Assembly: GCA_965220045.1 (NCBI GenBank)
Contig: OZ244803.1
Location: forward strand, 2,711,901-2,775,900
From: Chloroflexota bacterium
Lineage (GTDB): Bacteria; Chloroflexota; UBA11872; VXOZ01
DNA: 64,000 nt
Direction of reading: 5' to 3'
Below the pieces are notes generated by a model. That model was given only the letters and a program-made list of their open reading frames with translations, made no database searches and had not been told where the DNA came from. Shown one piece after another: positions 158 through 58,000 of the stretch. Every line of letters begins with the position of its first letter. The stretch's first letter is position 1. Position numbers and translations under genes: made by a program.

Positions 158-187
158 GTCATTCCCGCGAAAGCGGGAATCCATCTT
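158..187 (+). repeat. Family-A hairpin repeat (gtcattcccgcGAAAgcgggaatccatctt); left terminal inverted repeat of the GIY-YIG unit
   Basis: Perfect 8 bp stem attcccgc/gcgggaat with GAAA loop, read directly. It overlaps the stop codon of the GIY-YIG gene by 2 nt. The same 30-mer recurs about 20 times in the window. Confidence 0.9.
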
Positions 188-473
188 AAATGACTTCGTC
201 GTACACGTCCGCCCACTGTGGATTAGTCTTCTCGATCAACTCAATCTTCCACGCCCGGTTCCACTTCTTCAGCGCCTTCTCCCTCCTGATGGCGCTCTCC
301 ATAGTCTCATGTGCCTCGTACCAAACTAGCCTGTGGACACCGTATTCCTTTGTAAATCCCTCCACAAGGCCATTCTTGTGTTGCCAGACCCTCTGAGCGA
401 GGTTCGAGGTCACGCCGATGTAGAGGGTGCCTTTGGGGTTATTTGCAAGTATGTAGACACATGGTGTTTTCAT
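186..473 (-). CDS. GIY-YIG nuclease family protein (small UPF0213/YhbQ-like). The ORF track extends it to 521, but the likely start is the Met at 471-473 (MKTPCVYIL...)
   Basis: Motifs CVYIL...GTLYIGVTSNLAQRVWQHKNG...REKALKKW are the canonical GIY-YIG signature (GIY = VYI, YIG = YIG, conserved R and E). The frameshifted paralog at 1873-2159 is homologous only from this Met onward. Confidence 0.85.
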   Translation of the reverse strand: MKTPCVYILANNPKGTLYIGVTSNLAQRVWQHKNGLVEGFTKEYGVHRLVWYEAHETMESAIRREKALKKWNRAWKIELIEKTNPQWADVYDEVI

Positions 474-599
474 TACGGTGGTCTCTTCAAGTGTGCTTCC
501 GCTAGTTCTTAACGTTGACATGTGACAATGGGGTTGCCAGTACTTCGCTTATCGGCGAATCACTCCTTTTTGTTGAGGGCCAGCGCCCCACCCAGAGAC

Positions 600-629
600 A
601 AGATGGATTCCCGCTTTCGCGGGAATGAC
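600..629 (-). repeat. Family-A hairpin, inverted orientation; right terminal inverted repeat of the GIY-YIG unit
   Basis: aagatggattcccgctttcgcgggaatgac is the exact reverse complement of the 158-187 repeat. It lies 126 bp beyond the GIY-YIG start codon. Confidence 0.9.
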
Positions 630-865
630 AGACAAGACTAGCACTAGGCAGTATCGCAGGCATGTCCGCCTCATTCCATTTCCTACATGAGCGGCTGGTC
701 CACTTCAACTCTTCCTGGTATGCAAATCGTTCCGTCGACAGTTGCGCCATGCCGTTCATCCAAAGACAACCTTCGGGTGAACGGCCTAATAGCCTATTGC
801 TCGCTTGCCGGAACAGTGGCATTGCCTAGGCGTGACCCTACTGTACGCGGCGACAACTCTTATCC

Positions 866-895
866 GTCATTCCCGCGAAAGCGGGAATCCATCTT
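866..895 (+). repeat. Family-A hairpin (solo left end of a truncated GIY-YIG unit)
   Basis: Identical 30-mer preceded by the conserved flank tcttatccgtcattccc. Confidence 0.9.
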
Positions 896-985
896 AAATG
901 ACTTCGTCGTACACGTCCGCCCATTGTGGATTGGCCTTCTCGATCAACTCAATCTTCCACGACCGATTCCACTTTCCTTGTGCCT
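894..985 (-). pseudogene. 3' fragment of a GIY-YIG nuclease gene (about 30 C-terminal codons)
   Basis: About 90 bp near-identical to the 3' end of the gene at 186-473 (encodes ...HDRFHF...INSIFH...). Homology stops abruptly near 985. Confidence 0.7.
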
Positions 986-1226
986 CTACACCAACATTGG
1001 AACGTCCTGTTGGTCGGTTTAGCCGCCGACGGGTGATCTCTGTCGACCGGAGTACGTTCTCTATGGCCCTCCTCCGGGCCGATAGTGCGGCAATCCCATC
1101 TCTGGACTACTACGAAGGCTCCGCGAAGATGGCGGTCTCACCCCGCAAGCCATCCCGCGTTACAATTAAAACCAGGAATATAGCTTTCCTTGAGTCCATG
1201 ATGAGCCCAACGCGAGAGGAGGCACA

Positions 1227-1825: not shown

Positions 1826-1874
1826 GTCATTCCCGCGAAAGCTCGCCCCCGCTTGGGGGCGCGGAATCCATCTT
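1826..1874 (+). repeat. Family-A hairpin variant carrying a nested GC-rich palindrome (ctcgcccccgcttgggggcgcg) inserted in the loop
   Basis: gtcattcccgcgaaag-[ctcgcccccgcttgggggcg]-cggaatccatctt. The same kind of insert occurs at 39020-39068 and 41118-41166. Confidence 0.85.
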
Positions 1875-2159
1875 AGATGAATTCGTCGTACAAGTCCGCC
1901 CATTTTGGATTAGCCTTCTCGATCAACTCAATCTTCCACGCCCGGTTCCACTACTTGAATGCCTTCTCCCTGCAAGTAGCGCTTTACATAGTCTCATGCA
2001 ATTCATACCAGACTAACCTGTGAACACCGTACTGCTTCGTAAACCCCTCAACCTATCATTCTTATGCTGCCACACCCGCTGGACGAGGTTGGATATTACA
2101 CCGATGTAAAGGGTGCCATTGGGGTTATTCGCAAGTTTGTAGACGCAGGGCGATTTCAT
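1873..2159 (-). pseudogene. Frameshifted GIY-YIG nuclease paralog
   Basis: Reverse strand translates MKSPCVYKLANNPNGTLYIGVISNLVQRVWQHKND, then loses frame. The 3' end (...EFI*) and the downstream hairpin are conserved with the 186-473 copy. Confidence 0.75.
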
Positions 2160-4217: not shown

Positions 4218-4245
4218 GTAGGGGCACGATATATCGTGCCCCTAC
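4218..4245. repeat. Family-B 28 bp perfect palindrome gtaggggcacgatatatcgtgcccctac
   Basis: Perfect inverted repeat read directly. 4 copies in the window (4218, 9172, 18026, 39677), all intergenic. Confidence 0.9.
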
Positions 4246-9171: not shown

Positions 9172-9199
9172 GTAGGGGCACGATATATCGTGCCCCTAC
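9172..9199. repeat. Family-B 28 bp palindrome
   Basis: gtaggggcacgatatatcgtgcccctac, identical to the 4218 copy. Confidence 0.9.
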
Positions 9200-41261: not shown

Positions 41262-41317
41262 AGTCATTCAGGGCAAACCGCGCGCGCGATTTGCAAGAGT
41301 CTATCTGCGCAAGGCCG

Positions 41318-42402: not shown

Positions 42403-42473
42403 AGAGCAATGCATGCGCGTCTAGTTGGCTAGCCGCTCCGGCCTGCCGCGTGCGCAGAGGAGAATCCACGTAC

Positions 42474-43523: not shown

Positions 43524-43555
43524 GTAGGGAGGAGAGATTAGCAGTTTTGGCAAGT

Positions 43556-43583
43556 GGCGCAAGTTTGAAACCTGCGCCACCGG
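43556..43583. repeat. Family-C palindrome
   Basis: ggcgcaagtttgaaacctgcgccaccgg. Confidence 0.8.
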
Positions 43584-43644
43584 GGACGCAAGGCGCGGTG
43601 ACTCTAGGATGGCGACTAGTGCGCGCCATTTGGTTTCCCCCTGA

Positions 43645-43725
43645 CCCTCGCCCTCACCCCCGAATCAGTCGATACTTCGTATCGGGTACGGGGCAGGCTC
43701 TAGCCCTCTCCCCCAGGAGAGGGAA
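43645..43725 (+). repeat. Family-E repeat, long form
   Basis: ccctcgccctcacccccgaatcagtcgatacttcgtatcgggtacggggcaggctctagccctctcccccaggagagggaa. Confidence 0.8.
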
Positions 43726-43800
43726 CTGTTCGCCTCTTTTTTGGTGTGAGATGATCGAATCGATAAGTGCCTAGCTTTGGAAATGAGGAGTAAACAAACG

Positions 43801-44604: not shown

Positions 44605-44821
44605 AGTTCACTGCCCCAAGAGCGGCGCAGCCGGACTGTAGATGGTCGGAGAAACCGGCTTTCAGTCAGCCGGAGTGGCTGGTAGGGAGAACTCTACAGC
44701 AACGCTGCACTCGCTGTGTGTCGCTGCAACCGCGTAGGAACGATTTGAATCTGATGCCGTGGGGAAGAGTCGCTGGCGTTCTATTCCTAATCGAAAGCGC
44801 GGGCCGTCCCGCAGGCCCGGC

Positions 44822-46054
44822 TTAGGCCTCGTGCCACAGGGGCGCAATCCTCGCCCTATACTCCTCTTCGATCAGGGCCGCATATTCGGGCCAGACACCC
44901 ATCAGCGCATCGAGCCGGTCATTGTTCATGTCTTCGTGGGGCGTGATGGCGTCGTAGAGTCCGGTGACGATGCGGTTTGCTGCCGGACTGAGAACACCCT
45001 CCAGATTCTTCAAGACTGATCTAGCGTCCGCGCCGCCGTCATCCACCAAAGCCTTGAAGAATTGCGTGCTCAGAGCCTCTATCTCTTCGCCGAGATGCAT
45101 GCGCAGCCACTCGCCGTCGAAGAGATCCGGGCGGGCGTGCCGGAAGAAGACGGCAATGCCGAAGCGCCCGCGTATGCCCGCCAGCGCCTGCAACGCATAG
45201 CGTAGTCGTTGCTGTCGTGCCGCCTGAACGGAGTCTTGCTCGGGCAATTGTTGACAGAACGCCGTCACCAGGTCTCGCAATTCGTAGACGATCTGTAAGA
45301 GCTCGTCAGCAATGGCGGCGCACTCTTCGTCCGACATCTCCACGCGGTAGTCCGCCGCGACGATGGCGTTCAGCCTATCCAGTAGCTCCCGGTTGTCTAC
45401 CACTTCAGGCAATACCTTGAGCGCCGCCGGTTTGGTAGGCACCCACGCGTTGCGCAGCAGGCCGCACGCCAGCTTGGCCGCCGGCAGGAACCAGTGGGAC
45501 AGCGCGCCGTACACGGGATAATACGGCAGGTACTCGGGCAGCAGGTTGATGGGCGGATCGAACTGCTCCGCGCGCGGGACCAGATAGATGTTGAACTTGC
45601 CGCAGGCCTCGTGCTGCTGGGCTTGGGTGAATGGCGGCTCCTGCGCCGCCAGCACGTCATCGAGCGCATTCGCCGCGCCGCCGATGCGGTGCCAGTCGCG
45701 CACTTCGCCCATGAGTGGTAGAAGCTGCCGCGCCTCACGCGGAGAACAGATGAATCCTGGCGGGTGCTCCAAAATGCGGGCGTAGTGCGGCGCCTCTTCC
45801 AGCAATTCCACATACGACTCGCCGCCCGCGCGGCTGATTGCCAGCCAGGTCTCGGCGTCGGGGGCGTCCGCCACTGAGCGCAAGTCGTGATCGCTGAAAC
45901 CGGGCGTCAGCGTGCCCAGGTGATGCTTGCAGTAGACAGCGGTATCAAGACCGGGCACGTGCTCGGCAATATAGCGACCAAGCTCGGTGCCAATATAGCG
46001 GTAATCGTCGAGTGTGAGTGTCATGTCATGAATCGTTGTCTGTAGAATCGTCAT
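44822..46054 (-). CDS. Hypothetical protein. Possible minimal nucleotidyltransferase-like N-terminal motif (G-x10-S-D-H-D-L)
   Basis: Only LGTLTPGFSDHDL resembles a Pol-beta-type NTase motif. The rest is helical with no family match I can make by eye. Confidence 0.3.
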   Translation of the reverse strand: MTILQTTIHDMTLTLDDYRYIGTELGRYIAEHVPGLDTAVYCKHHLGTLTPGFSDHDLRSVADAPDAETWLAISRAGGESYVELLEEAPHYARILEHPPGFICSPREARQLLPLMGEVRDWHRIGGAANALDDVLAAQEPPFTQAQQHEACGKFNIYLVPRAEQFDPPINLLPEYLPYYPVYGALSHWFLPAAKLACGLLRNAWVPTKPAALKVLPEVVDNRELLDRLNAIVAADYRVEMSDEECAAIADELLQIVYELRDLVTAFCQQLPEQDSVQAARQQRLRYALQALAGIRGRFGIAVFFRHARPDLFDGEWLRMHLGEEIEALSTQFFKALVDDGGADARSVLKNLEGVLSPAANRIVTGLYDAITPHEDMNNDRLDALMGVWPEYAALIEEEYRARIAPLWHEA

Positions 46055-46078
46055 TCCCGCGAAAGCGGGAATCCATCT
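46050..46078 (+). repeat. Family-A hairpin
   Basis: gtcattcccgcgaaagcgggaatccatct. A stem-variant copy (gactccggctttcgccggagtgac) follows at 46150-46173. Confidence 0.85.
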
Positions 46079-46265
46079 CCGTTGATTTTCTGGCCTTCGG
46101 CCCCGACTGGTCTATGGGGTAGGAGTACTTTGTTTGAGTCCCCACCCTAGACTCCGGCTTTCGCCGGAGTGACGGATTGTTAGGGACAACTCAACCTCTC
46201 GGCCCCATCATCAGTCTGACCAATAGCGAGAGTCACCTGTTGTCGCTTCTTGCACACGCCGGAGG

Positions 46266-47303
46266 TCAAGACACCGCCGCTGCCGGAGTCTGCGTAAACG
46301 TATACGCCTCAAATTCATTCTCACAGGGATAGCCGTAGCTCACGAGGAGGCTGCGCTCCCGCGCAATCATGATGTAGCCCATGATGCTCTGCGCCAACGC
46401 ATCATGCCGGCAGATATTGGCGGGTTCCGTGTGGGTACGCGCAATCCGCATAAGCTGCTCCAGCGAGTGGGGCTGCTCCGCCGTCAGACGCTCGAGCACC
46501 GTGAAGCGGTCACGGCTGTTCTGCGCGGCCGGGCCGCCGTCGTTCTTAAGCACGGCCTGCATGTCGTCGGTCAAGTAGTGGTTTGTATTCCAAATGGTGT
46601 GGCTATCCATGCGCCGCACGGCCATACGCGTCGGCGAGCGCTCCACCACGATAGCCGCGCCGCTGGGATCCGTAAACATCATGTTGGTGCCGTGGTTCAT
46701 GATGGGCGTGCGCGCCACCAAGTCGGCCACGGCATCAACGGAATCGGCGAACTGCAAGAGGTAACGCAGCACCGTATTGGTGGGAATGCCGTCCCAATCG
46801 CTGTCGTTGTTCGGAATACTGCTCCCGCCGTAGGTGAGACCCGCCTCGTTCACACCCGCATTCAGCCAGGTGGTGCCGACGTAGGTCACTCCGACATAGG
46901 CGTGCCCGCGGTCGGGGCGCAACTCCTGCAGGACGTGAAACTGCTTCATGTCCGCATCCACATCGTTGGACTTGAAATGAATAGTGCCCTGGGGCGTATC
47001 CGCCAAGGCGACATTCGTGCATTCTACGCGCGAGCGGCTGATCTCCTGGCAGGCGTTGTAGGCAAAGAGATCGTCAAAGTTTACGTTGGCCGCTTCCGCG
47101 ATGGCGTGAAGTTCCTCCAGCGACTCGGGGAACACTCTGTCCAGGTTGCGCTCGACCTGCCGCAGCACGCGTCTCCCGTGGGCATCATCCCAGCCCCGGT
47201 CCAGCGCAAACCGCTTCACCGCCGCGGGAATTATGTCCGCAAACGCCGCGCCATGCTGGAGTCCCATCTCGCGGGGCGTGCCTGACTGAACCACTTGTCG
47301 CAT
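46266..47303 (-). CDS. Peptidase C45 / acyl-CoA:6-aminopenicillanic-acid acyltransferase-like Ntn hydrolase. Start taken at the Met at 47301-47303 (GAGGAGG RBS)
   Basis: MRQVVQSGTPREMGLQHGAAF..., ...GVNEAGLTYGG... (Ntn-hydrolase GxNExGL motif), about 345 aa. Confidence 0.55.
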   Translation of the reverse strand: MRQVVQSGTPREMGLQHGAAFADIIPAAVKRFALDRGWDDAHGRRVLRQVERNLDRVFPESLEELHAIAEAANVNFDDLFAYNACQEISRSRVECTNVALADTPQGTIHFKSNDVDADMKQFHVLQELRPDRGHAYVGVTYVGTTWLNAGVNEAGLTYGGSSIPNNDSDWDGIPTNTVLRYLLQFADSVDAVADLVARTPIMNHGTNMMFTDPSGAAIVVERSPTRMAVRRMDSHTIWNTNHYLTDDMQAVLKNDGGPAAQNSRDRFTVLERLTAEQPHSLEQLMRIARTHTEPANICRHDALAQSIMGYIMIARERSLLVSYGYPCENEFEAYTFTQTPAAAVS

Positions 47304-47415
47304 GGAAAATGCCTCCTCAATGCAACTGTACTCTTTCGATATGTGCCGCCGTTTCTTGACCGCTTCAGAGTGCTGCAGCCCGCAGCAACTCACCATCAAC
47401 TAATGGCCGAGAGGG

Positions 47416-48300
47416 CTAATTGCGTATCCCTTCCACCGCCGCGTACACGCTCCCGATAGTGCCCCCAACAACCTCGTAGCCCTCTTCATCGGCAATGATG
47501 TTGATTTCATCCACGATGGCATCGAACGCCTGCCGCTTTTCGCTGGTTGCGTCTTCGTAGAAGTGCGTATTGTGGGTGAAGGGCATGATGATTCTGGGGG
47601 CGTCGTCTGGGTATTCCGCCATGTCCGCCCAGGCTTGGCGAATGGTCTGCCGGTGGGAAGCGCCGTCGCCGCCCTCGATGCGGAGTTCCATGGGGAGATG
47701 GGGAGCGCGGCGGCGCACCTGGTCGCAGGTTAGCGGAATTTCGTAGAAGTCAAGATCGCCGGCAAAGAGGCGGTTCGCCTTATGGGCGTAGTGGGCGAAG
47801 GGCACGGCGCCCTGCCACACCGCCTTGGCCAGATCATACTGGCGGCCCGGCGACGAAACGCTGCCGTGGGTGAAGCCCGTGGCGACCAACGCGGGATAGG
47901 TGTTGTCGTTTGCCGAAAAGTTGCCGCCCCTGAAAGTGGTCGGCCTCTTGCCGATAGCGTCGGCCCACTGGTCGGCGACGGAGTCGAACATGTCCACCTG
48001 CTCTTCGAACGTGAATCCGCCGAGATAGTCGGCATAGCCGAGGCGGGTATCCTGCGGATGGATGTGCAGGCCGAGCTCAAAGCCGCGCTTCTCAAGATCC
48101 CAATACAGGGAGGGCTGGGCCGCCGCCGTCTGCGCCACGATGAAAAGTGTCGCACTGAGACCGTTCTCTTCCAGCGCATCCGCGAAACTCGTAACCGACC
48201 GTTCGCTGATGCTCCATTCATCCGGCCCGCCGTGAATGGAATCGTCCATGAGCTGTTCGCAGTCCTGCGTAAAGATGACGTAGAGCGGTTTACCTGCCAT
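47416..48300 (-). CDS. Polysaccharide-deacetylase-like (CE4/PuuE-like) protein
   Basis: YVIFTQDCEQ (TxDxE-type motif 1), ...LHIHP... His motifs, about 290 aa. Weak call. Confidence 0.45.
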   Translation of the reverse strand: MAGKPLYVIFTQDCEQLMDDSIHGGPDEWSISERSVTSFADALEENGLSATLFIVAQTAAAQPSLYWDLEKRGFELGLHIHPQDTRLGYADYLGGFTFEEQVDMFDSVADQWADAIGKRPTTFRGGNFSANDNTYPALVATGFTHGSVSSPGRQYDLAKAVWQGAVPFAHYAHKANRLFAGDLDFYEIPLTCDQVRRRAPHLPMELRIEGGDGASHRQTIRQAWADMAEYPDDAPRIIMPFTHNTHFYEDATSEKRQAFDAIVDEINIIADEEGYEVVGGTIGSVYAAVEGIRN

Positions 48301-48456
48301 GAATCTCGATCCTTTACATCTTCAGGAGATCATCTCTCGTTTAGATACTCATGTGGAGCATTTCGCCAAGAGTCGTTTCCCATTTACGTTCACAAGCTTA
48401 CCGAACGTCTAGTCAGTCCAATTGAAACGAAGCAAAACACAAAAGGGTTGAGTTTC

Positions 48457-48523
48457 GTCATTCCGGCGAAAGCCGGAATCCATCTTCGCAGCAAACCTGG
48501 ACTCCGGCTTTCGCCGGAGTGAC
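48457..48523. repeat. Two back-to-back hairpins: family-A stem variant (gtcattccggcgaaagccggaatccatctt) and inverted stem variant (ggactccggctttcgccggagtgac)
   Basis: The stem changes cccgcg to ccggcg and gcggga to gccgga are compensatory. Flanks are conserved. Confidence 0.85.
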
Positions 48524-48639
48524 AAGCCTGGCCGCCTGTTTCATCCCCACCATTCCACGCCGGCGGGGCACAAGGCCCAGCGCTACATCCCAAGAGCCAA
48601 ACCCCCAAGAGCTACACTATCAAGAGCTGTGCTCCGGTT

Positions 48640-48678
48640 CCCTCTCCCTGGGGGAGAGGGTTAGGGTGAGGGGGAACC
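48640..48678. repeat. Family-E repeat, short form
   Basis: ccctctccctgggggagagggttagggtgagggggaacc. Confidence 0.7.
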
Positions 48679-48740
48679 TCCTTCACTCTCAAATCCTTGT
48701 GTCCCCGCCCTACCGCATTGGCGTATCCATTGACAACTAG

Positions 48741-49853
48741 CTAACAGCACTTCTCCTCCTGCGCCATGCGGTCCACGTCCACCATCACGTCGGTCAGCAA
48801 ATCCACGTCCACCTCGTACCACAAACCGAAGGTGCTTGTGCCGCCCGGCCCCAAGATTTCCTCCGCGATTTCGCGTACCACGCCACGGTCCGCGTTTTGC
48901 ACGCCGAAGTCAGCAAATGTCGAGGGCAGGTTGACCGACTGGTTGAAGCGGATCAGCTTGCGTACCTCGGCTTCGCCCTGCTGCATGAGCGCAACTGAAA
49001 TGAGTATGCCGAACGCCACTTGCTCGCCGTGCACGCCTTCGTTCGTAGCATGCTTCGAGAATCCGGGGTGCAGGCCGTGCTCGCCGCCCACCACGCCACA
49101 GGCCGGTCCGGCCACGCCGCCGCCGTAGACAATCGCTTCGACCACCTTGTCCACCGCTTCCGTGGCCACGCCGCGCTCGCAGGCCTCGTAGGCCGATGCG
49201 CCGTAGCCGAGGATCGTGTCATACGTCCATTCCGCGATGGCGATAGCCGCGCCGGTGGGAAAGACATTGTCGAAGCCGAGCATACGTTCGGTGCCGCTGT
49301 TCTGCCGGAGTTCGCGCGCGATGCGGCCGCCCGTCCACGTGGGCAGCGCATCGGCCATTCCGGCCGCCAGCCAGCGCCCGCCGCCCTGGGCAATGATGCG
49401 CGTGTCGGCAATCACCGTATGCGGGCCGACGTACCACACGTTGCGGTCGGCGTCGCCCTCGATGCTGGCACTGAAGGTCGCCGTCGCGTTGGTCGATGCC
49501 ACCGTCGGCAAGCTGATGAGCCAGGCGCCCATTTCGTGCGCGATGGCCTTGGCGGCATCCACCACGCGCCCGCCACCCGCGCCGATGACCACGTCCGCGC
49601 CATACTCTTTGCCCATTGCCACGAGGGCATCCACTTCCGGGCGCTTCTTGTCGACATGGCTACCGTGCTCGACGTGGTACGGAATGCCGTGCTCGTCGAG
49701 CGCGCCGGTGACGGTATCCTGGATGGCCGCCACGGCCCGTCCGCCGCCGACGATAAACGCTTTGCTGCCCAACGCCGCGGCATGCGCGCCAACGTCGCCA
49801 ACAACTCCCGGCCCCACCACAAAGCGCAGCGGGTGAACGATTGCTTTCTTCAT
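48741..49853 (-). CDS. Glycerol dehydrogenase family protein (iron-containing ADH / DHQS-like superfamily)
   Basis: GAGGGRVVDAAKAIAH..G..LISLPTVASTNATATFSASIEGD......VIADTRIIA....LAAGMADALPTW and ...HPGFS....EGVHGEQVAFGILISVAL align motif-for-motif with E. coli GldA as I recall it. Confidence 0.8.
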   Translation of the reverse strand: MKKAIVHPLRFVVGPGVVGDVGAHAAALGSKAFIVGGGRAVAAIQDTVTGALDEHGIPYHVEHGSHVDKKRPEVDALVAMGKEYGADVVIGAGGGRVVDAAKAIAHEMGAWLISLPTVASTNATATFSASIEGDADRNVWYVGPHTVIADTRIIAQGGGRWLAAGMADALPTWTGGRIARELRQNSGTERMLGFDNVFPTGAAIAIAEWTYDTILGYGASAYEACERGVATEAVDKVVEAIVYGGGVAGPACGVVGGEHGLHPGFSKHATNEGVHGEQVAFGILISVALMQQGEAEVRKLIRFNQSVNLPSTFADFGVQNADRGVVREIAEEILGPGGTSTFGLWYEVDVDLLTDVMVDVDRMAQEEKCC

Positions 49854-50426
49854 AGCTGATTATTCCCTTAGCAAATGTAGAATTGATTCGTTTCAATCAC
49901 TGCGGCAGAGCCCGTTCATCCTCGCAAATTGCCGCTAATGCCCGTCATCCGACTCCCAAGCCCGTCTATTCATCTCCGATTCACTGAGGGAGGCAAACGC
50001 TGCAGCGCTCGCAATCTCATCTTCGTACTCGTCCCAGTCGCAATCCTCTCCGACTTCATCGGAGATTTCGGCGCGTTTGGCGCAGAGATTGCCTTCTTGT
50101 TCTGCAGTCATGAGCTTCCTGTCCCAGATTCGATTGCTATGACGAGTCGATCTTGCTGCACATCTGTCGCGTTGGATGGCAACGACCAAAGCCATCGGGC
50201 GATATCGGAATACCACTGTGATTGTGTACTCGTGCCGCCGTAGGCGCTGATTCCCTTGGACCTTGTTTGCCGATCACGTCTCCAGATACTTGAACGCAGC
50301 ACTCCTTTGACAGTATCCACGCAGACTTGCCTTGAATGCTGCCACATCCAGCTTCAGTGGCTGAGCTCGTGCGGCTACGGCCCGCAAGCGAACGTCCCAT
50401 GACCTGCGCGTAGTGCGCTCGTGCGC

Positions 50427-51644
50427 CTAGCCCACCGCCACCGGCAGGCGCATGTCGGATGCCACGGTGTTCATGCTCTCCTTGATGGCCGCCGCCACGT
50501 AGCGCAGGTCCTCGTCGGTCATGAGCGGATGGATGGCCGGGCAGAAAAGCCGCCGGCCGGCATCCGTGGAAACCGGCACGTCGTCCGGACTGTGCCCCAT
50601 GCGCACCATGTAACCGACGTAGTCCGGCAAGGAGGCGTTCATGATCCACGTGCCGACGCCGTGATGGCCGATAAGGCGGTCCGCAAACTTGTCGCGCGGG
50701 TCGCCGGCCCAATCCTGTTCGAACATGAGCGTATAGCCGTACCACACGTGGTGGTAGCCCTCCGGCTCGATGGGGAAGATCAGGCCGGGAATGTCCTCGA
50801 TCAATTCCACAAAGTCGGCCACGCGCTGCCGCCGCGCCTCATTCATTTCGTCGAGCCGTGTGACTTGGATCGAACCCGCCACCGCCTGCAATTTCGTCAT
50901 GCGGAAGTTGGTGCCCCAGCCGTCCAGCGCGCTGCCAAACGAGCGCATGCTGTTCACGAACGTGGCGTAGTCGTCATCATCTGTTGTTACCATGCCGCCT
51001 TCGCCCAGCGTCGTCATGTTCTTGCTGGTCTGGAAGCTGAAGATGTTCATGGCGCCCTTCTTGCCGACCTTGGTGCCCTTGTAGCCGGCGCCGACGGCGC
51101 GGGCCGCGTCGCAAAGCACCGGAGGCGGGCCGTGCACGGGATGCGGATGCCGCTGGGCGACGTCTTCCAAGGCGTCCACGTCGGCGGAGAGGCCGTTGTT
51201 GTGGACTGCCAGGATCGCGCGGGTATTCGGCGTCATGCAGCGCTCGACGTCGTTGGGGTCGATGTTGAACGTCGCCGGATCGATCTCCGCCAGCACTACC
51301 TTAGCGCCGACACCCATCACGCAATGCGACGTCGCCTTAAACGTGATGCCCGGCACGATGACCTCATCGTCGGGACCGAGTTGCAGGGCATGGATCGCAG
51401 CGTCCAAGCCGGTACCGCACGAATTCACCGCAAGCGCGTGCTTCACGTCGCAGTATTCCGCGAACTCTTGCTCGAACTGGGCAATTTCCGGCCCGTGAAA
51501 GCCGATGCGCCAGTCCATGCTCTCCTGCAAGCTGGCGTTAATCGCGTCTACCTCTGCTTGCGTGTACCACCCGCCAAGGATCGGAAACGGAAACTGCCGC
51601 TTGCCATGCTCCAGCAGGTTTCTCTCTTCACTTGTCAATTCCAT
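50427..51644 (-). CDS. DegT/DnrJ/EryC1/StrS family PLP-dependent aminotransferase
   Basis: Family profile including ...AVNSCGTGLDAAIHAL....DDEVIVPGITFKAT..... and the catalytic Lys region ...FSFQTSKNMTTLGEGGMV... Confidence 0.85.
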   Translation of the reverse strand: MELTSEERNLLEHGKRQFPFPILGGWYTQAEVDAINASLQESMDWRIGFHGPEIAQFEQEFAEYCDVKHALAVNSCGTGLDAAIHALQLGPDDEVIVPGITFKATSHCVMGVGAKVVLAEIDPATFNIDPNDVERCMTPNTRAILAVHNNGLSADVDALEDVAQRHPHPVHGPPPVLCDAARAVGAGYKGTKVGKKGAMNIFSFQTSKNMTTLGEGGMVTTDDDDYATFVNSMRSFGSALDGWGTNFRMTKLQAVAGSIQVTRLDEMNEARRQRVADFVELIEDIPGLIFPIEPEGYHHVWYGYTLMFEQDWAGDPRDKFADRLIGHHGVGTWIMNASLPDYVGYMVRMGHSPDDVPVSTDAGRRLFCPAIHPLMTDEDLRYVAAAIKESMNTVASDMRLPVAVG

Positions 51645-51719
51645 CGAAAACTCCTCACTTCACTGCAACTCTTAGCCAGAATTATTGCCACTCAATAGGA
51701 TTCTGTCTCGACGAGTCTA

Positions 51720-53474
51720 TCACGATTGCACGACAACCTGCCGCGCTTCGGCTCCGTTGCTGCTGATAGGCACCGGCACCAGGGCATAGGTGTAGCCGTA
51801 AGCATCTTGCAGCGACACGTCCACGGCTTCACCATCCACCGTGGCGTGCGGAGTCTCACCGTTCTGCTGCGGCACCATGAGTGTAAAGCTGCCGCTGGGA
51901 GAGCTGCCGGTGACCGTGCAGGAAAAGCTGCCGTCATTCCACGCGCTTTGCGAAACCTGCGCCCGGTCGCGCGCGCGCACAAAGTCCGCCCACTCAAACG
52001 CGCTCAAGATGGGCAATCCAAGCTCGTTTGCATAGTCCCAGCACTGGTTCTGATAGGCACTGCTGTACGTATAGAAAGAAACCGGGTGAGAGAGCATTGT
52101 CAGCGGACTGAAATAGCGTTCCTTCTTATCTATCATCCCCTGGCGCGTCGCCTTCGCTTCACCCACGGGGTTCGATGAGAGCTGGGCTTTCACGGAGGCG
52201 TCGTCGTAGGCTTGGGTGAGTTGCTGGAAGACTTCGATGATTTCACCGTCGGTATCCACGAACTTGCCGGGATGCCCGGAGCCGTTCGTGTACTGCAGCC
52301 ACTGGTGGCGGATGCTCAACAGGTTCGTATCCAGCACCACGCCCACGTCTTCATAGACGCGCGCAAGGTCCACGTAGCCTTTCCAGCCGAGGCAGTGATT
52401 GCGGTTGGCAATGACCGTTTCGCCGCCGTAGTGCTCCCGGAAATAGCCGGTATCGCGACGCACGATCTCTTCCATCACGGCGTCTTGTTCTTCATTGACG
52501 TACTGCGGATCGAAGGCGTTGTGATGAATGCCGAATGAGTGGCCGCGAGCGCGCCAGCCCTCTACCCGCTCCGGCGTCGCAATGGTGTACTTGGAAGGCC
52601 CAAGCATGAGGTAGATGGTGATGTGGCCGTTGTGGGCCTCCACAGAATTCATCAGCGCTTCGAAGGCTTCCAGCGGCGAGTAGTCGTCGTCGGAATCCAG
52701 CACCACCGTGCTCTTAGTCTCCGGCGTGTCGTAGTACCACAGGCGCGGCTGTGGATGCTTGGCGATGGCATTAATGGCGTTGCCAAGCAGCATGGCGTGG
52801 ATGTCCGCCTGCGGCAGGTGCATGCGGCGCGGGTCGATGTGGCCGGCAAACGCATCGTTGGGGCGGTAGGGATTACCGAAGCCAAGGGTGCGCCAGCCGT
52901 GATGGACCGGATTGCCTTGGCGTATCAGCGCCACGGCCTGGGCGAGATCGTAGCCAAAGACTACTGCCTGTCCTTTGCCGAGCGGCACGTGCAGGACGGC
53001 GGGATAGGACGTTTCGACCTCGGCATCCAGGTAGACCCGCGCGACTTCGCGGGTGCCTTCCGGCAGTTGCAGCGGTTCGTAGTTGTCGACGGGCAGATGC
53101 GTCTGAACGGACTCATGCGGCACGCCCGCGCTGATGGCATTATCCGGCAACGGACGCACATAGGCCGGAAAGGCCACGGTATCCGTAGGCGCCAGACCCA
53201 ATGCCTCCGTCAGCAGCCGCGAGGGCCGCAGCGCGATGAGGCGTCCGCCCCCCTTCACATAGGCTGCCAGCCGGTCCACGTAGGCACGGCGCGGCAGACA
53301 GGGCGTGACGATCACGGCATCATACGCTTCGAGCCGCGCCAGCGAATCCTGGCCGATGGGCTGCACGTCAAAGTCCGCAAAACCCTCCGCCTTCAGCACT
53401 GCAGCGGTATACGGCCCATAAGTATTCGCGCGGTTACCCGGCTGGGTGAGAATGAGCATGCCCACGGTGGACAA
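51720..53474 (-). CDS. Hypothetical 584 aa protein (possible deacetylase/glycoside-hydrolase-like central domain)
   Basis: No confident motif. Central VVLDSDDDYSPLEAFEALMNSVEAHNGHITIYLM region vaguely CE4-like. Confidence 0.35.
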   Translation of the reverse strand: MSTVGMLILTQPGNRANTYGPYTAAVLKAEGFADFDVQPIGQDSLARLEAYDAVIVTPCLPRRAYVDRLAAYVKGGGRLIALRPSRLLTEALGLAPTDTVAFPAYVRPLPDNAISAGVPHESVQTHLPVDNYEPLQLPEGTREVARVYLDAEVETSYPAVLHVPLGKGQAVVFGYDLAQAVALIRQGNPVHHGWRTLGFGNPYRPNDAFAGHIDPRRMHLPQADIHAMLLGNAINAIAKHPQPRLWYYDTPETKSTVVLDSDDDYSPLEAFEALMNSVEAHNGHITIYLMLGPSKYTIATPERVEGWRARGHSFGIHHNAFDPQYVNEEQDAVMEEIVRRDTGYFREHYGGETVIANRNHCLGWKGYVDLARVYEDVGVVLDTNLLSIRHQWLQYTNGSGHPGKFVDTDGEIIEVFQQLTQAYDDASVKAQLSSNPVGEAKATRQGMIDKKERYFSPLTMLSHPVSFYTYSSAYQNQCWDYANELGLPILSAFEWADFVRARDRAQVSQSAWNDGSFSCTVTGSSPSGSFTLMVPQQNGETPHATVDGEAVDVSLQDAYGYTYALVPVPISSNGAEARQVVVQS

Positions 53475-53768
53475 CCTCCTGAATATGGATAGAGTCTTTG
53501 GCTTACTTTACGTGAGGAGTATACCAGTTTCTCGGCTATGGGCTTGATGCGATGGAACCCACTGTTTCTGGATTGCCGACCCGCTTGCGGCGTGCGCTTC
53601 AATCGCAGGTTGGCAAACGTGATTTGCCCAATACCGCATAGCCTTTGTCTGACGTTTCTTTGCCATCAGGATGCTTCGCGGACGACGTAGTGAAGAGTTT
53701 ACACGGCCTGCTGTAGCTAGTACTCTGAACGCTACGGCAGTGGGAGCGTCAAAGAGGATGCACGTTGC

Positions 53769-55298
53769 ATGTTGACTGCGTGGGTACTCATCGTCTTCCT
53801 GGCGTACTTTGCGGCGCTCATCGGCATCGCGGTGCTTCGCACCCGCCAGATGCAGGAGATGTCGGACTACGTACTCGCCGGCCGCAAGGTCGGCAGCTTC
53901 ACCTCGGCCTTGAGTTCCAGTTCGTCATCCACCAGCGGGTGGACCATGCTCGTCTTCCCGGCGCTGGCATTCATGAACGGCGCCGTGGAATTCTGGACGG
54001 TATTCAGCATCGTCCTGGGTTTCTGGTTGACGTGGACCATTTATGCAAAGCGGTTGCGCCGGTACACCATCGCGACGGAGAACTCCCTTACCTTTCCCGA
54101 GTTTTTCGAGAATCGCTTTGAGGACAAGAGCGGCGTGCTGCGCACGCTTTCCGCCGCGATAGCCCTCTTCTTCATCATCTTCTACATTAGCTCCGGCTTG
54201 ATCGCCGGATCCAAGCTGCTGAATACGGTATTCGGCCTCGAAGGCATTGTGGGTGTCCTGGTGACGCTCGTGGCCGTCGCATCGTATACCTTCATCGGCG
54301 GTTTTCTCGCCGTTTCCCGCACGGACGTCTTCCAGGCCATTATCATGCTGGCCGGCTTCATCATCCTGCCAATCACGCTGCTATTCCTCACCGCCGAGCC
54401 CTTTCAGGGCCTGGAGGGTACGGCCGCCGGCTTCTGGAACCCTTTCACCGACGCATCCGGCAAGGGCGTCACCCTCACCTTCATGCTCTCGACAGCCGGC
54501 TGGGGGTTGGGGGCCTTCGGCTCGTTGCGCGTCTTGCAGCGCTTCATGGCCGTGGATAGCGAACAGCGCATACGGCCCAGCCGCGACATCGGCACACTGT
54601 GGGCAACGCTCATATTCTTGTTTGGTCTCTTGCTGGGGCTCGTGGCTCTGCCGGCCCTTGGCGAGGTTGGGAGGCTCGATGAGGTCACCGCCGATCCGGA
54701 GCGCCTCTACCTCGTCGCCGCGACCGTCTTCTTCCCGCCCATCGTAGCGGGGGTCCTGCTGTCGGCGGTGATCGCCGCCGTAATGAGCACGGCGGACTCC
54801 CAGTTGCTCTTGGCTTCAGCGATCGCCACCGACGACCTGCCGCTTGTCCGAAGGTATGCCTACGCCAAACGGTACGTTTATGTGCTCGGCGCGTTTGCGC
54901 GCGTGTGGCTGGGCCGCTTTCTGCTGGTCGTGGTCGGCGTAATCGCGGCATTGCTTTCCATCTTCAACCCCGATTCCGTGTTCAATCTGGTCTCATACGC
55001 GTGGGGCGGCATGGGCGCGGCCTTCGGACCCCTACTCTTGCTCGCGCTCTACTGGCGCCGCTTCAACTATTGGGGAGCACTCACGTCCCTGCTCACCGGC
55101 ACGGTGGTTGCCTCGATTTGGGGCTACTTTTCCGGCGGCCCCGGCGGCATCATGGACATCCAGCCGGCCACACCGGGCTTCATCATCACCATCCCCGTTG
55201 CCGTGCTTGTCACGTTGCTTACGGCCAAGCCATCCGCAAAGGCGACGGAAGTGTTCGATGACGTCGCTACCGGCTGGTCCGCTGCGCGCGAGAGCTGA
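53769..55298 (+). CDS. Sodium:solute symporter family transporter (PutP/SSF-like)
   Basis: 13 predicted TM helices, N-terminal ...YVLAGRKVG...SALSSSSSSTSGWTMLVFPALAFMNG... characteristic of SSF. Confidence 0.85.
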   Translation: MLTAWVLIVFLAYFAALIGIAVLRTRQMQEMSDYVLAGRKVGSFTSALSSSSSSTSGWTMLVFPALAFMNGAVEFWTVFSIVLGFWLTWTIYAKRLRRYTIATENSLTFPEFFENRFEDKSGVLRTLSAAIALFFIIFYISSGLIAGSKLLNTVFGLEGIVGVLVTLVAVASYTFIGGFLAVSRTDVFQAIIMLAGFIILPITLLFLTAEPFQGLEGTAAGFWNPFTDASGKGVTLTFMLSTAGWGLGAFGSLRVLQRFMAVDSEQRIRPSRDIGTLWATLIFLFGLLLGLVALPALGEVGRLDEVTADPERLYLVAATVFFPPIVAGVLLSAVIAAVMSTADSQLLLASAIATDDLPLVRRYAYAKRYVYVLGAFARVWLGRFLLVVVGVIAALLSIFNPDSVFNLVSYAWGGMGAAFGPLLLLALYWRRFNYWGALTSLLTGTVVASIWGYFSGGPGGIMDIQPATPGFIITIPVAVLVTLLTAKPSAKATEVFDDVATGWSAARES

Positions 55299-55359
55299 CG
55301 CGCAGCGGGGCTGAGGAAGAAATCGGGCAAGAGACCCTAGGTAGTGTTGACATTTCGCC

Positions 55360-55389
55360 GTCATTCCCGCGCAAGCGGGAATCCATCTT
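55360..55389 (+). repeat. Family-A hairpin (GCAA loop)
   Basis: gtcattcccgcgcaagcgggaatccatctt. Confidence 0.85.
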
Positions 55390-55539
55390 CACGCTGCGCA
55401 GATTGTCCTGCTGCGAGGGGGAGCGAGTGACCGTGCGCGCAAGGATTGTCTTTGTCACAGGCCTTTTCTCCCACGCTGCGGAGCAAAACAACCGTGAATC
55501 CCGCACAAACACTTGAGATTCCTCGCTTTCGCTCGGAAT

Positions 55540-56599
55540 TGTAAGTGTCAGGTAATTCGTTGACAGATCTGGTAGAACATTGATGAGTGTCAATCACCAG
55601 ATCTGGAGGCAACTGATGCGGGATAATAGTAGTGACAAGACCATTGAACGGAACCTCATGCAGAAGTGGCGTTTCCTCATCGCCGAGTACGAACGGGTCA
55701 AGGCCAAGCAGCATCCCCAGTTCCGCTTCCTGCAGGACTTCTATGCGTTCCATGGTACCAGTCGCCAGACCTTCGCCAAGTACTACAACCGTTTCTGTCA
55801 GACGCGCAGCGATGACGCCCTGCTGCCGCGCAAGCGCGGTCCCAAGTGGAAGAGCCGCCGCACCTTGCCCTACATCGAGCAGAAGGTGCTGGAGCAGCGC
55901 CGCAAGGGTATCAACCGCTATGAGATCTGTGCCATACTCAAACCGGTACTCAAAGCGCACACACCCTCACCCTCCACCATCTACGCCATTAGCAAGCGCC
56001 ATGGGCTCAACCGCCTGAAACCGGCCATGAAACAAGCCAAGCGCACCATCATCAAGACCCGCGCGGGCGAACTGGGGCATCTGGACTGCCATTACCTCAG
56101 CCGCGACCTGCTCCTGGACAGCTCCCAGCGCTACTACCTGGTCTCCGTGCTCGATGCCTGCACCCGTCTGGCCTGGGCTGAAGTGGTGCCTGACCTCAAG
56201 AGCCTCAGCGTCATGTTCGCCGCGCTCAAGAGCATCAACCTGCTCAACGTTGAGTACGGCATCCAGTTCGAAGCCATCCTCACCGATAACGGTCCTGAGG
56301 TGGCGGCACGCACGAAACCGGCGCAGCATCCCTTCGAGCGCATGCTGCTGGAGCTCGGCATCAAACACCGCTACACCCGGCCCTACCGACCCCAGACCAA
56401 CGGCAAGATCGAACGCTTCTGGCGGACCCTGAACGACGACCTGATCGAAGGCACGACGTTCGAGAACCTGACGGAGTTCCAAAACGAACTGATGCAATAC
56501 CTCCTGTACTACAACACGGAAAGACCACACCAAGGCCTGAAGGGGAATACGCCTCTTCAAGCTCTGCAAAATCTGTCAACGAATTAGTCAACATTTACA
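55540..56599 (+). mobile_element. IS481-family insertion sequence, complete. 29 bp imperfect terminal inverted repeats and a 5 bp target duplication GGAAT, inserted into a family-F hairpin
   Basis: Left IR tgtaagtgtcaggtaattcgttgacagat, right IR (reverse complement) tgtaaatgttgactaattcgttgacagat. Flanks ...cggaat|IS|ggaatgac reconstitute the hairpin gtcattccgagcgaaagcgaggaatc. Confidence 0.85.
55580..56587 (+). CDS. IS481-family DDE transposase (rve integrase core)
   Basis: N-terminal HTH region, then ...HLDCHYL...YYLVSVLDACTRLAWAEVV......TDNGPE... and RPYRPQTNGKIERFWRTLNDDL...YYNTERPHQGL, characteristic of IS481/rve. Confidence 0.85.
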   Translation: MMSVNHQIWRQLMRDNSSDKTIERNLMQKWRFLIAEYERVKAKQHPQFRFLQDFYAFHGTSRQTFAKYYNRFCQTRSDDALLPRKRGPKWKSRRTLPYIEQKVLEQRRKGINRYEICAILKPVLKAHTPSPSTIYAISKRHGLNRLKPAMKQAKRTIIKTRAGELGHLDCHYLSRDLLLDSSQRYYLVSVLDACTRLAWAEVVPDLKSLSVMFAALKSINLLNVEYGIQFEAILTDNGPEVAARTKPAQHPFERMLLELGIKHRYTRPYRPQTNGKIERFWRTLNDDLIEGTTFENLTEFQNELMQYLLYYNTERPHQGLKGNTPLQALQNLSTN

Positions 56600-56727
56600 G
56601 GAATGACATCAAATGTCAACAGAGCCTAGACACTGCTCAACAGCCGGCATCCCTTTGGAGTGAACAACACCCGCCGTGTGGCGGGTGTTTGCGGTTCTCC
56701 GCTTTCGATGGCCCGGCGCCTACTTGC

Positions 56728-57795
56728 TCAGTGCCTCAGTGACCTGATGATTGGCCCTGCCGCTAGCAACTCGGCAAGATGTCCCGCCCGGTCCACACGC
56801 CCGAAGTAGTTACAGGGAATCACTTCAAACGGTCCCAAGCGGCGCATTACTTCATCGAGCAGCAGGTTTTGGCCGATGTTGTCGGTGGCGTAGTGGGGCA
56901 GGCGCACCAGAGCGATTCCGTGCTCCTGGCAAGCGGCCACGCTTGCCGCCCCCGCCGAAACTTGAACCACAGTATTCACTCCCGCCTGCGCCAGCAGAGG
57001 AAAAGCGGTCGGTGGGTAGGCATAGCCGCCGGCGAACTTGGCATGAATGCGGCCGACGGGCTGCGCCGCGTCGCCCACCATTATGCGGGGTACCGCGCCG
57101 ATTTGCGCGGCTTCTTGCATTTCAGGAATCGTTAGCATGAGCTCAACCACGTCGCCTACCGTCCGCGGCCGCTCCCGGGCAAAGAGTGCATTCAGGTATT
57201 GGCGGTGCGCCAAATCTACCGGCGTGTGGATGCAGGCCAATGGATACCCGAGCAGCTTAGCCGTATCGGGCCCAATGCGGTGCACATCCTCATGCTCGCG
57301 CAGACGCTGGGCCATAAAGTCGAAAATGCACGCGCGGGCCTCATCTGCCGGCACCCCTTCCCACACGAGATAGTCCGCGTTTATCTCCATGAAGTCCGCG
57401 ACGAGCGAGGCGGAGATGCCGACGCTGTTGGTGTGATGTGAGATAAAGGCATCAATCTTTGTACCTTTGGCAGCAAGCTGCGCGCCAAGCAGCAACTCTT
57501 GCACGTGCAGGTTGATGCCGACCAACGCGGTGCGGATGGGCGTATTGTCCGGCCCGTTGGATATCCGCACGTCACCGTAAGGATTGCGAAAGCGTTCCTT
57601 GTCGTAAATCTCCTGCTGCCAGGCGGGCAACGCGGCATACTCGTCGCTCCGCTGCTGCAACTGGCGCTCTATGGTCGCCTGGCCGCGCGGGTCCAACTCC
57701 CGGCCAATTGCGATGGAGGTCTCATACATTTCGCGCAAAGTCACGACACTATTCCTATGCTTCCGTACATGCGCTGCGATACTTCCAGTCGTCAC
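56728..57795 (-). CDS. NIF3/DUF34-like dinuclear-metal-center protein (tentative), paralog 1
   Basis: ...VGINLHVQELLLGAQLAAKGTKIDAFISHHTNS... and C-terminal ...LPHYATDNIGQNLL... mirror the YbgI-type HH and GHxATE motifs. Confidence 0.45.
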   Translation of the reverse strand: MTTGSIAAHVRKHRNSVVTLREMYETSIAIGRELDPRGQATIERQLQQRSDEYAALPAWQQEIYDKERFRNPYGDVRISNGPDNTPIRTALVGINLHVQELLLGAQLAAKGTKIDAFISHHTNSVGISASLVADFMEINADYLVWEGVPADEARACIFDFMAQRLREHEDVHRIGPDTAKLLGYPLACIHTPVDLAHRQYLNALFARERPRTVGDVVELMLTIPEMQEAAQIGAVPRIMVGDAAQPVGRIHAKFAGGYAYPPTAFPLLAQAGVNTVVQVSAGAASVAACQEHGIALVRLPHYATDNIGQNLLLDEVMRRLGPFEVIPCNYFGRVDRAGHLAELLAAGPIIRSLRH

Positions 57796-58000
57796 TCCCG
57801 CGAAAGCGGGAGTCTATCTGCGAAGATTAAGATGGATTCCCGCTTTCGCGGGAATGACGGGTTGTTGCGTTCTTCACTGCGGCAAACACCGCCACGCCAA
57901 AAGCGGACTTGCTAGTATGGATTCCCGCTTTCGCGGGATTGACGGGTTGCTGCGTTCTTCACCATGGCAAACACTGTCACGCCAAGAGCGGACAAGCTAG
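57791..58000. repeat. Repeat cluster: three hairpins (family A and a stem variant gtcactcccgcgaaagcgggagtc) plus a roughly 85 bp tandem duplication
   Basis: gacgggttgYtgcgttcttcacNNNggcaaacacYgYcacgccaaRagcggacWWgctag occurs twice (57856-57915, 57941-58000), each preceded by an inverted hairpin. Confidence 0.85.

Follow-up and report, generated by a model that had tools for sequence, protein, structure and literature searches.

What recognises the short, oriented hairpins that recur in a stretch of DNA from an uncultured Chloroflexota bacterium, and does it recognise them as RNA or as DNA? The question is raised by 64,000 nucleotides (nt) of GenBank assembly GCA_965220045.1 (contig OZ244803.1, positions 2,711,901 to 2,775,900); this whole stretch is called the window, and all coordinates are window positions, with + or - for the strand. 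A sequence-only reading had described about 20 hairpins with common flanks as one superfamily selected for structure, acting either as an RNA stabiliser or terminator or as single-stranded DNA (ssDNA) recognised by a structure-specific enzyme. The second alternative is favoured here over an RNA carrier. By homology, the hairpins are very probably Ssn-related motifs (SRM), the class that includes the Neisseria NTS/dRS3 repeats, and targets of an ssDNA nuclease. The system is of a known kind, described in 2025, to which a Chloroflexota genome is added as host. The analysis establishes what the repeat is, shows that it covaries, that orthologous sites conserve it and that it is linked to an Ssn-type gene, and reveals a second hairpin class that has a nuclease clade of its own.

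Hairpin groups were built by in-context inspection of each match to GTCATTCC or GGAATCCATCTT in the window. The GTCATTCC octamer occurs 23 times against 1.9 expected, and GGAATCCATCTT, with at most two mismatches, 18 times against 3.3 expected. Fourteen hairpins form a core group, GTCATTCC-stem-loop-stem-GGAATCCATCTT, at 158+, 629-, 866+, 1826+, 2315-, 17951+, 33315+, 39068-, 41118+, 46050+, 48457+, 55360+, 57858- and 57943-, the last being degenerate. Core copies share a conserved 3' extension, CATCTT, and are divided 9 to 5 between the plus and minus strands, a sample too small for interpretation. Three variants with GTCACTCC/GGAGTC ends (46173-, 48523- and 57791+) have the outer pair altered on both sides. 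About six further hairpins make up family F, with the pattern GTCATTCC-GA-GC-loop-GC-GA-GGAATC (33709+, 33810-, 33996-, 38869+, 33886+ with a nested insert, and a copy split into 55508-55539 and 56600-56607 by an insertion sequence, IS). The figure of about 20 hairpins with common flanks is borne out by these groups, far over chance. The plain core hairpin at 158-187 has an 8-bp stem and a predicted energy of -9.1 kcal/mol when folded as DNA (z = -3.7).

A literature search for the repeat sequence linked it to the NTS motif, CGTCATTCCCGCGMAVGCGGGAATCYRG, a 28-nt extension of the Neisseria dRS3 repeat (Chenal et al. 2025, Nat Commun 16:2388, PMC11893778), from which the core of the window, CGTCATTCCCGCGAAAGCGGGAATCCAT, differs in a single base, the last. 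Searching for literature on GIY-YIG together with repetitive extragenic palindromic found none. The wider class was named SRM and given the pattern HGTCWYN(0-2)YYVSBRHN(0-5)WNVSBRGN(0-2)RNCYNB (PMC11893778). That pattern has 13 sites in the window against 0.53 in shuffles, and the NTS motif, at the one mismatch or fewer used in the paper, has 6; the window scan with the SRM pattern matched neither family F nor the three copies that bear inserts. The dRS3 palindrome, ATTCCC-N8-GGGAAT, is present in the copies at 158, 629, 866, 2315, 17951, 33315, 46050, 55360 and 57858, which have a CCCGC or CCCGT stem. In the published system, tested with enzymes from Neisseria and Wolbachia, SsnA is a 94-amino-acid single-domain GIY-YIG protein that binds the hairpin solely as ssDNA and on one strand, and cuts a few nucleotides upstream of it; it is inactive on double-stranded DNA and RNA, and RNA of the same sequence is not bound in vitro (PMC11893778). 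SsnA lowers the transformation of Neisseria meningitidis by NTS-bearing DNA, and ssnA is often bracketed by the repeat (PMC11893778). The C after the palindrome is critical for binding and three upstream bases are critical for cleavage (PMC11893778); the conserved G1, T2, C3 and C24 of the hairpins studied here agree with these positions.

A gene of the corresponding type lies at the start of the window. It occupies 186-473 (-) and encodes a 95-amino-acid, single-domain GIY-YIG protein (MKTPCVYIL...DEVI; Pfam GIY-YIG, E = 3.4e-17; tblastn self-match of the open reading frame, ORF, at 189-473). Its stop codon overlaps the end of the core hairpin at 158-187 (+), which flanks the gene on its 3' side with the tail toward it, fits the SRM pattern and has one mismatch to the NTS motif. 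An inverted core hairpin at 600-629 (-), also found in the SRM scan, lies 78 nt upstream of the longest ORF and 126 nt from the M17 start and closes an NTS-ssn-NTS cassette. Two decayed copies of the gene were found nearby by tblastn. The last 30 codons of one, 83% identical to the intact copy, remain at 897-986 (-) beside the core hairpin 866-895 (+; in-context reading and SRM scan). The other, at 1876-2159 (-), is a pseudogene disrupted by a frameshift and two in-frame stops, with 75-81% identity to the intact copy. Just as the intact gene lies between hairpins 158 and 629, the pseudogene lies between a core hairpin at 1826-1874 (+), which carries the 20-nt GC palindrome TCGCCCCCGCTTGGGGGCGC after GAAAGC, and an inverted core hairpin at 2286-2315 (-; in-context reading and SRM scan). 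In all three copies a hairpin touches the stop codon, and the intact gene and the pseudogene each have an inverted hairpin upstream.

When 20 homologues drawn from both of the protein clades described below are aligned, Y18, R28, H32 and E65 do not vary and Y7 is kept in at least 90%; by a numbering inferred with a one-residue offset, Y7, Y18 and E65 correspond to Y6, Y17 and E64 of SsnA (Chenal et al. 2025). NCBIfam holds no specific model for the 95-amino-acid protein family. In a PDB sequence search its closest solved relative is a distant one, UPF0213 protein BH0048 (E = 3e-4); a further match, to a WD40 repeat, was spurious. The repeat-gene-repeat layout is also seen in a syntenic Chloroflexota genome (L080), in Dyella (L064) and in Rhodanobacter (L109). 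Three homologues of the NTS clade (P0063, P0082 and P0116) end in GFPLSRE, which is the translated reverse complement of NTS.

Compensatory stem changes had been given, together with GNRA loops, as grounds for proposing selection on structure, and in the window they are as described: CCGGC/GCCGG at 48457, CCCGT/ACGGG with loop GCAA at 33315, and ACTCC/GGAGT at 57791; the one correction concerns 33315, whose right arm reads ACGGG and not CACGGG. A larger alignment was assembled by scanning the exact core 30-mer across one genome per species. It occurs in at least 114 places in many phyla, among them Chloroflexota, Rhodanobacteraceae (Dyella, Rudaea, Rhodanobacter), Nitrospirales, Pirellulales, Bacteroidota, Ignavibacteria, Zixibacteria, Atribacteria, Acidobacteriota and a candidate phyla radiation (CPR) genome. 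From the window and the 114 loci listed, all 30-mers with at most seven mismatches from the consensus were collected without regard to pairing. This yielded 289 copies with 114 distinct sequences, 112 of which were aligned, and no matches in shuffled controls; 125 of the 289 are the query 30-mer itself, and the copies are not independent events. Across the eight stem pairs of the 112 sequences, 97.1% of cells are paired, and 53 cells show double changes against 6.3 +/- 2.3 in shuffles (0 of 500 reach that number) and 3-12 with slid partners. One stem pair shows four Watson-Crick types. The compensatory character of the differences thus extends to the larger alignment. T2 is invariant among the 112 distinct copies, and G1, C3 and C24 are at least 90% conserved.

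The description of the loops as GNRA tetraloops applies in the window, save for the GCAC loop of the insert-bearing copy at 41118, and fails in the wider family, where 43 of the 289 loops, all outside the window, are non-GNRA; GAAC (26 copies), GAAG (7) and GAAT (2) occur. The apex GCGNNAGC is present in 228 of the 289 copies, the core apex being GCGAAAGC or GCGCAAGC. Since GCGNNAGC and GCGNAGC are characterised in a review (PMC13037366) as extraordinarily stable DNA mini-hairpin motifs, the apparent GNRA loops are equally well explained by these motifs in DNA.

These loops bear on the alternative that the hairpins act in RNA, as 3' untranslated region stabilisers, processing sites or terminators of the genes upstream. 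Enterobacterial repetitive extragenic palindromic (REP) elements stabilise mRNA, and several features would suit such a role: the stem is stable, the window loops are GAAA or GCAA apart from the one at 41118, all 20 tabulated units are intergenic, and several lie 20-60 nt past a stop codon (17951, 39068 and 55360). This placement agrees in part with the sequence-only reading, which had copies at gene 3' ends or between convergent genes; most copies are in fact surrounded by a co-directional gene pair. Against an RNA role, no T-run follows the stems, the tails reading CCATCTT or GACGGAT, and no copy in 38500-58400 is terminator-like. The hairpins occur in both orientations relative to the preceding gene, so that half of the copies would present a UUUC loop. 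Rfam 15, run over the window at the gathering score, reported a tRNA-Thr only and no match to the hairpins; on the absent T-runs, the terminator scan and this comparison, the identities of intrinsic terminator and of known RNA family were rejected. The 43 non-GNRA loops also count against it, and the conserved GTC and C are the determinants of DNA recognition by SsnA, which does not bind the RNA (Chenal et al. 2025). An RNA role is accordingly judged highly improbable as the basis of the family, and a secondary effect on transcripts is possible. Recognition as ssDNA by an enzyme is favoured by the NTS/SRM match, the hairpin-flanked Ssn-type gene and the near-invariant 5' GTC and 3' C, and over RNA by the missing T-runs, mixed orientation, lack of an Rfam match, DNA mini-hairpin apices and indifference of SsnA to RNA.

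Whether the hairpins are maintained was examined at orthologous sites. The HisD protein of the window is 83-93% identical to that of a set of Chloroflexota metagenome-assembled genomes (MAGs; chromosomes of 3.3-3.6 Mb) and about 60% identical to that of Thermomicrobiales and Dehalococcoidia. Repeats were mapped in the hisD neighbourhood of the window and four relatives, and three occupy matching positions in all five genomes or in most of them: a hairpin between a metallophosphoesterase gene and hisD, a hairpin between a ureidoglycolate-lyase gene and hisB, and, in all five, an F hairpin upstream of hisB (38869-38896, +, in the window). The lyase-hisB spacer aligns with a mean column identity of 51%, and nothing in it but the two hairpins forms a conserved block. 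One of the orthologous copies has a compensatory CCGGC/GCCGG stem and another a G.T intermediate. As conserved blocks within otherwise unalignable orthologous spacers, the hairpins are therefore maintained, by selection or homogenisation, while the spacer decays. Together with the covariation, this upholds the proposal of selection on hairpin structure.

The same sites bear on a reading that overlaps with the one preferred here, in which NTS-ssn-NTS is primarily a selfish mobile element, its nuclease serving the spread of the hairpins and not a host function, and the solitary hairpins and gene-less pairs are non-autonomous derivatives like those of REP and the REP-associated tyrosine transposases (RAYT) or miniature inverted-repeat transposable elements (MITEs). 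The cassette is laid out like an IS, with inverted hairpins at both ends; three copies of it, two decayed, lie in 2.3 kb; gene-less tail-to-tail pairs share its geometry; the identical 30-mer is spread across many phyla; and the pair at 48457/48523 is missing in the closest relative, L117. When the spacer of that pair was aligned with its L117 orthologue for an empty site or target duplication, the spacers proved too diverged. The authors of the Ssn paper themselves raise the analogy to REP/RAYT or MITEs (PMC11893778). On the other side, hairpins keep their orthologous positions between genomes that share just 83-93% HisD identity, and no target-site duplications were seen. The cassette array lies beside a solute-binding-protein gene in both the window and L080, and its paralogues are about 77-80% identical, which indicates an old array rather than a recently mobile one. 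No GIY-YIG enzyme is known to transpose DNA. A primarily selfish nature is considered unlikely on this evidence, if far from negligible.

Two things go beyond the published description of Ssn targets, the first being family F as a class. In the window it includes a pair, GTCATTCC-GA-GC(GNA)GC-GA-GGAATC with tandem G.A mismatches, made of a short hairpin at 33709-33736 (+) and a long one at 33773-33810 (-); the same type of short/long pair recurs in L019 and L058. A second long hairpin lies at 33962-33996 (-). The F hairpin at 33886-33925 (+), which adjoins a solitary IS end, contains a nested palindrome, TCGAAC..GTTCG, and an analogous variant occupies the orthologous hisB site in L118. No match to the F sequence was found in the literature searched. 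A metagenome scan with an F 28-mer found 120 loci, and two of these contain an ssn homologue that shares 42-43% identity with the window protein. In L169 inverted F hairpins stand on both sides of the gene: one lies 9 nt ahead of its start codon, and the other contains the end of the ORF; in L125 the related hairpin has ATTGC/GCAAT arms. Homologues of the L169 protein show the F-gene-F layout in L241 and L242. The hairpins that flank a set of Anaerolineales homologues are F-like, and their ATACT/AGTAT arms covary; a further set has F-like hairpins nearby. At least 10 more homologues (P0241-P0245, P0287, P0320, P0328, P0351 and P0358) end in DSSLRSE, the translated reverse complement of F. Such hairpin-encoded tails, which arise where the called ORF enters the downstream inverted hairpin, mark the flanking class, GFPLSRE standing for NTS and DSSLRSE for F.

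The NTS and F protein clades are 43% identical to each other. An arm-agnostic search for GTC-N5-GA-N2-loop-N2-GA-N5-C found 497 sites in the 1.66 Mb searched, 279 of them fully paired. The outer arms covary (ATTCC/GGAAT at 197 sites, ACTCT/AGAGT at 33, ATCCT/AGGAT at 21, and others), while the apex, GCGNAGC, and the tandem G.A mismatches are conserved. Within the window there is no F-clade gene. With its own nuclease clade in F-gene-F cassettes, covarying arms and the shared GTCA...C frame, family F is best read, from these comparisons, as a second specificity class of the same superfamily, which is in keeping with the idea of one superfamily in the sequence-only reading.

The second addition to the published description concerns palindromes added at a fixed position in the hairpin. 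Three core copies, at 1826, 39020 and 41118, had been reported to carry an extra GC palindrome in the loop. The palindrome is indeed there in each; its position is two bases into the 3' arm, after GAAAGC, and its length 19-20 nt, so that the copies read GTCATTCCCGCG-loop-GC, then TCGCCCCCGC-NN-GGGGGCG(C), then G(G)GAATCC. Orthologous comparison covered the 39068 and 41118 sites. The hairpin at 39020-39068 (-) contains an exact 19-nt insertion, TCGCCCCCGCGCGGGGGCG, relative to the plain hairpins at the orthologous site in four relatives. The hairpin at 41118-41166 (+) contains a 20-nt insertion and retains the loop GCAC; the orthologous site is plain in L117-L119, where relatives read GTCATTCCCGCGCACGCGGGAATCCA, and L117 and L118 have the same GCAC loop. 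The insertions are specific to this lineage and were made in hairpins that already existed.

Nowhere in the window does the GC palindrome stand by itself. Its combination with the hairpin recurs in another Chloroflexota MAG (L027) and in a metagenome contig (L178), and other palindromes stand at the analogous place in F-type hairpins (L118, the window copy at 33886, L145, L179, L232 and L243). Folded as DNA, the 39068 copy forms two small hairpins closed by an ATTCCC/GGGAAT stem; the predicted energies of the three insert-bearing copies are not unusual (z = -1.0 to -1.8). That one fixed position is used in at least three separate hairpins, with plain relatives and the local loop retained, points to a process acting site-specifically on the hairpin, such as a minimal palindromic insertion element or the footprint of templated repair. 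The insertions fit the in vitro tolerance of SsnA for extensions at the loop position (Chenal et al. 2025). The joint proposal, that family F is a distinct class of Ssn targets outside the SRM pattern and that a site-specific process adds 19-20-nt palindromes to NTS hairpins, is advanced tentatively, judgement leaning somewhat against both parts holding together.

Family F has also received an IS. The F hairpin at 55508-56607 (-) is split into 55508-55539 and 56600-56607 by an IS481-family element at 55540-56599, whose transposase (55580-56587) matches NF033577 with E = 1.3e-59 and whose inverted repeats begin TGTAAGTG. The insertion made a 5-bp target duplication, GGAAT, and removal of the element restores GTCATTCCGAGCGAAAGCGAGGAATCTC. 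A second copy of the IS runs from 63925 to the end of the window, and solitary IS ends at 33647-33676, 33853-33885 and 34042-34074 adjoin the same ATTCC arm. The inserted copy, the second copy and the solitary ends at this arm suggest that the IS targets F hairpins. The solitary ends lie in an intergenic spacer of about 1 kb (33250-34250) that holds a core hairpin, a decayed copy, four F units, three IS-end remnants adjoining F arms, and a right-half remnant, GGAAATCTATCTT, at 33473.

Such targeting, with its duplication and its repeated use of the ATTCC arm, could be taken to mean that the hairpins exist as attachment or target sites for other elements, as dRS3 serves the Neisseria filamentous prophage. 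Only family F is hit in the window, however, and none of the 14 core copies; a target-site role leaves the covariation, the ssn linkage and the orthologous conservation unexplained, and the simplest account of the insertion is that a conserved sequence was available in many copies. This is the least probable of the alternatives considered and is given hardly any weight.

The preferred reading, that of hairpins recognised as ssDNA by an Ssn-type nuclease, would work as follows. In single-stranded DNA, each copy would fold, on one of its strands, into an 8-bp stem capped by the very stable GCGNNAGC mini-hairpin. The nuclease encoded at 189-473 would recognise both fold and sequence, notably the oriented 5' GTC and 3' C, and would then make its cut in the single strand, a few bases upstream of that hairpin; the binding of ssDNA and the upstream cleavage are inferred from the published homologue. 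The gene itself sits between two inverted hairpins with their tails inward (NTS-ssn-NTS); the solitary hairpins and gene-less tail-to-tail pairs would be dispersed copies of the same target, and family F would be a second specificity class with the GTCA...C frame, served by a second Ssn clade encoded outside the window. Candidates for the cellular role are restriction of incoming or exposed ssDNA and maintenance of a selfish cassette.

Several points weigh against this reading. The assignment to Ssn was set by Pfam domain, size, residues, layout and repeat. An ssn gene lies within the fetched stretch in 3 of 114 NTS loci and 2 of 120 F loci, most copies being solitary, and the repeat-gene association rests on the cassettes together with the published census. 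Copying of pre-compensated variants and gene conversion between copies can both inflate the covariation of a DNA palindrome. Family F is weakly folded with standard DNA parameters (-2.7 kcal/mol, z = +0.8). Finally, because altering the palindrome with the fold retained abolished SsnA activity (PMC11893778), the stem variants and insert-bearing copies may not be substrates of the window's enzyme.

The remaining copies in the window are solitary or paired. Solitary core hairpins lie at 17951-17980 (+; loop GCAA, 59 nt past the gene at 15648-17891), at 33315-33344 (+; the CCCGT/ACGGG stem with loop GCAA) and at 55360-55389 (+; loop GCAA). The core hairpin at 46050-46079 (+) stands tail-to-tail with the variant hairpin GTCACTCCGGCGAAAGCCGGAGTC at 46147-46173 (-). 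A second such pair joins the core copy at 48457-48486 (+) to a GTCACTCC variant at 48497-48523 (-), both with CCGGC/GCCGG stems; it has the geometry of an ssn cassette without the gene and, folded as one strand, a predicted energy of -27.8 kcal/mol (z = -7.0). A third consists of a GTCACTCC variant at 57791-57817 (+) and a core copy at 57829-57858 (-). The idea that these pairs are strand-asymmetric long hairpins was rejected, since each strand has one G.T and one A.C and the pair is symmetric. The degenerate core copy at 57914-57943 (-; GTCAATCC) belongs to an 85-bp tandem duplication (57832-58001, 88% identity) that doubled a core hairpin plus flank.

Other repeats were seen alongside these. 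The copy at 4218 that had been counted with the hairpins belongs to a separate palindrome family, GTAGGGGCACGATATATCGTGCCCCTAC (GTAGGGGCAC...GTGCCCCTAC), with four near-identical copies at 4218-4245, 9172-9199, 18026-18053 and 39677-39704, three of them perfect and that at 39677 with one substitution. These REP-like palindromes of the GTAG type, also present in L118 and L119, are unrelated to the GTCATTCC family. The repeat CCCCTCACCCTAACCCTCTCCCCCAGGGAGAGGGAACCGGAG occurs at 48610-48700 of the window (minus-strand reading) and at 1370-1430 of L117, its positions differing between the orthologous spacers. At L021:1600-3298 (Desulfobacterales bacterium HSG2) at least 12 NTS hairpins stand in one orientation, spaced 45-110 nt apart and with a conserved CTTGCT leader, an array unlike the dispersed layout of the window. 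Apart from the repeats, a 745-amino-acid minus-strand ORF at 29741-31978 is set in DNA of lower G+C (about 57%), did not pass a simple gene filter based on codon-position G+C, and may have been acquired horizontally.

The linkage of repeat and nuclease has been reproduced here independently from raw sequence, and a Chloroflexota genome joins the hosts of Ssn and SRM. Current understanding is not overturned; what is of most value is the F class, together with the nested insertions and the targeting by the IS. If the F hairpins do form a second class served by an Ssn clade of their own, they would represent a new cleavage specificity for a family being developed as ssDNA tools, and the nested-stem hairpins, if correctly interpreted, would show that loop extensions tolerated in vitro occur naturally in genomes. 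The conserved hairpins amid decaying spacers argue for maintenance and bear on the question of a domesticated as opposed to a selfish system.

Comparison with known systems places the hairpins as follows. They resemble REP elements, bacterial interspersed mosaic elements (BIMEs) and their RAYTs in being short intergenic palindromes that occur in inverted pairs, flank a gene in inverted orientation and are associated with recognition of an ssDNA hairpin; they differ in having a GIY-YIG nuclease rather than a Y1 HUH transposase (IS200/IS605 family) and in lacking a 5' GTAG. A REP/RAYT identity was rejected on the bracketed genes, which are GIY-YIG, and on the 5' motif, which is GTCA and not GTAG; only bracketed genes were considered, with no window-wide Y1 scan. 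The apices, GCGAAAGC or GCGCAAGC in the core and GCG(C/G/A/T)AGC in family F, are those of the DNA mini-hairpins GCGNNAGC and GCGNAGC; the motifs in PMC13037366 are synthetic or short natural ones, whereas here they cap a longer stem that is a putative protein target. Like dRS3 and the Neisseria intergenic mosaic elements (NIMEs; ATTCCC-N8-GGGAAT), the hairpins are intergenic, multi-copy and open to insertion by mobile elements; dRS3, in contrast, is defined in Neisseria and now seen as the NTS core, the window has no RS mosaic elements, and the insertion is of an IS481-family IS into family F rather than of a prophage with a Piv-type recombinase. The Ssn/SRM system differs from that of the window in that the latter has an uncultured Chloroflexota host, the 3' extension CATCTT, three nested GC palindromes and the F class alongside; the two are alike in the oriented hairpin with its 5' GTC and 3' C, in the many intergenic copies, and in the gene of about 95 codons for a GIY-YIG protein that lies between inverted copies.

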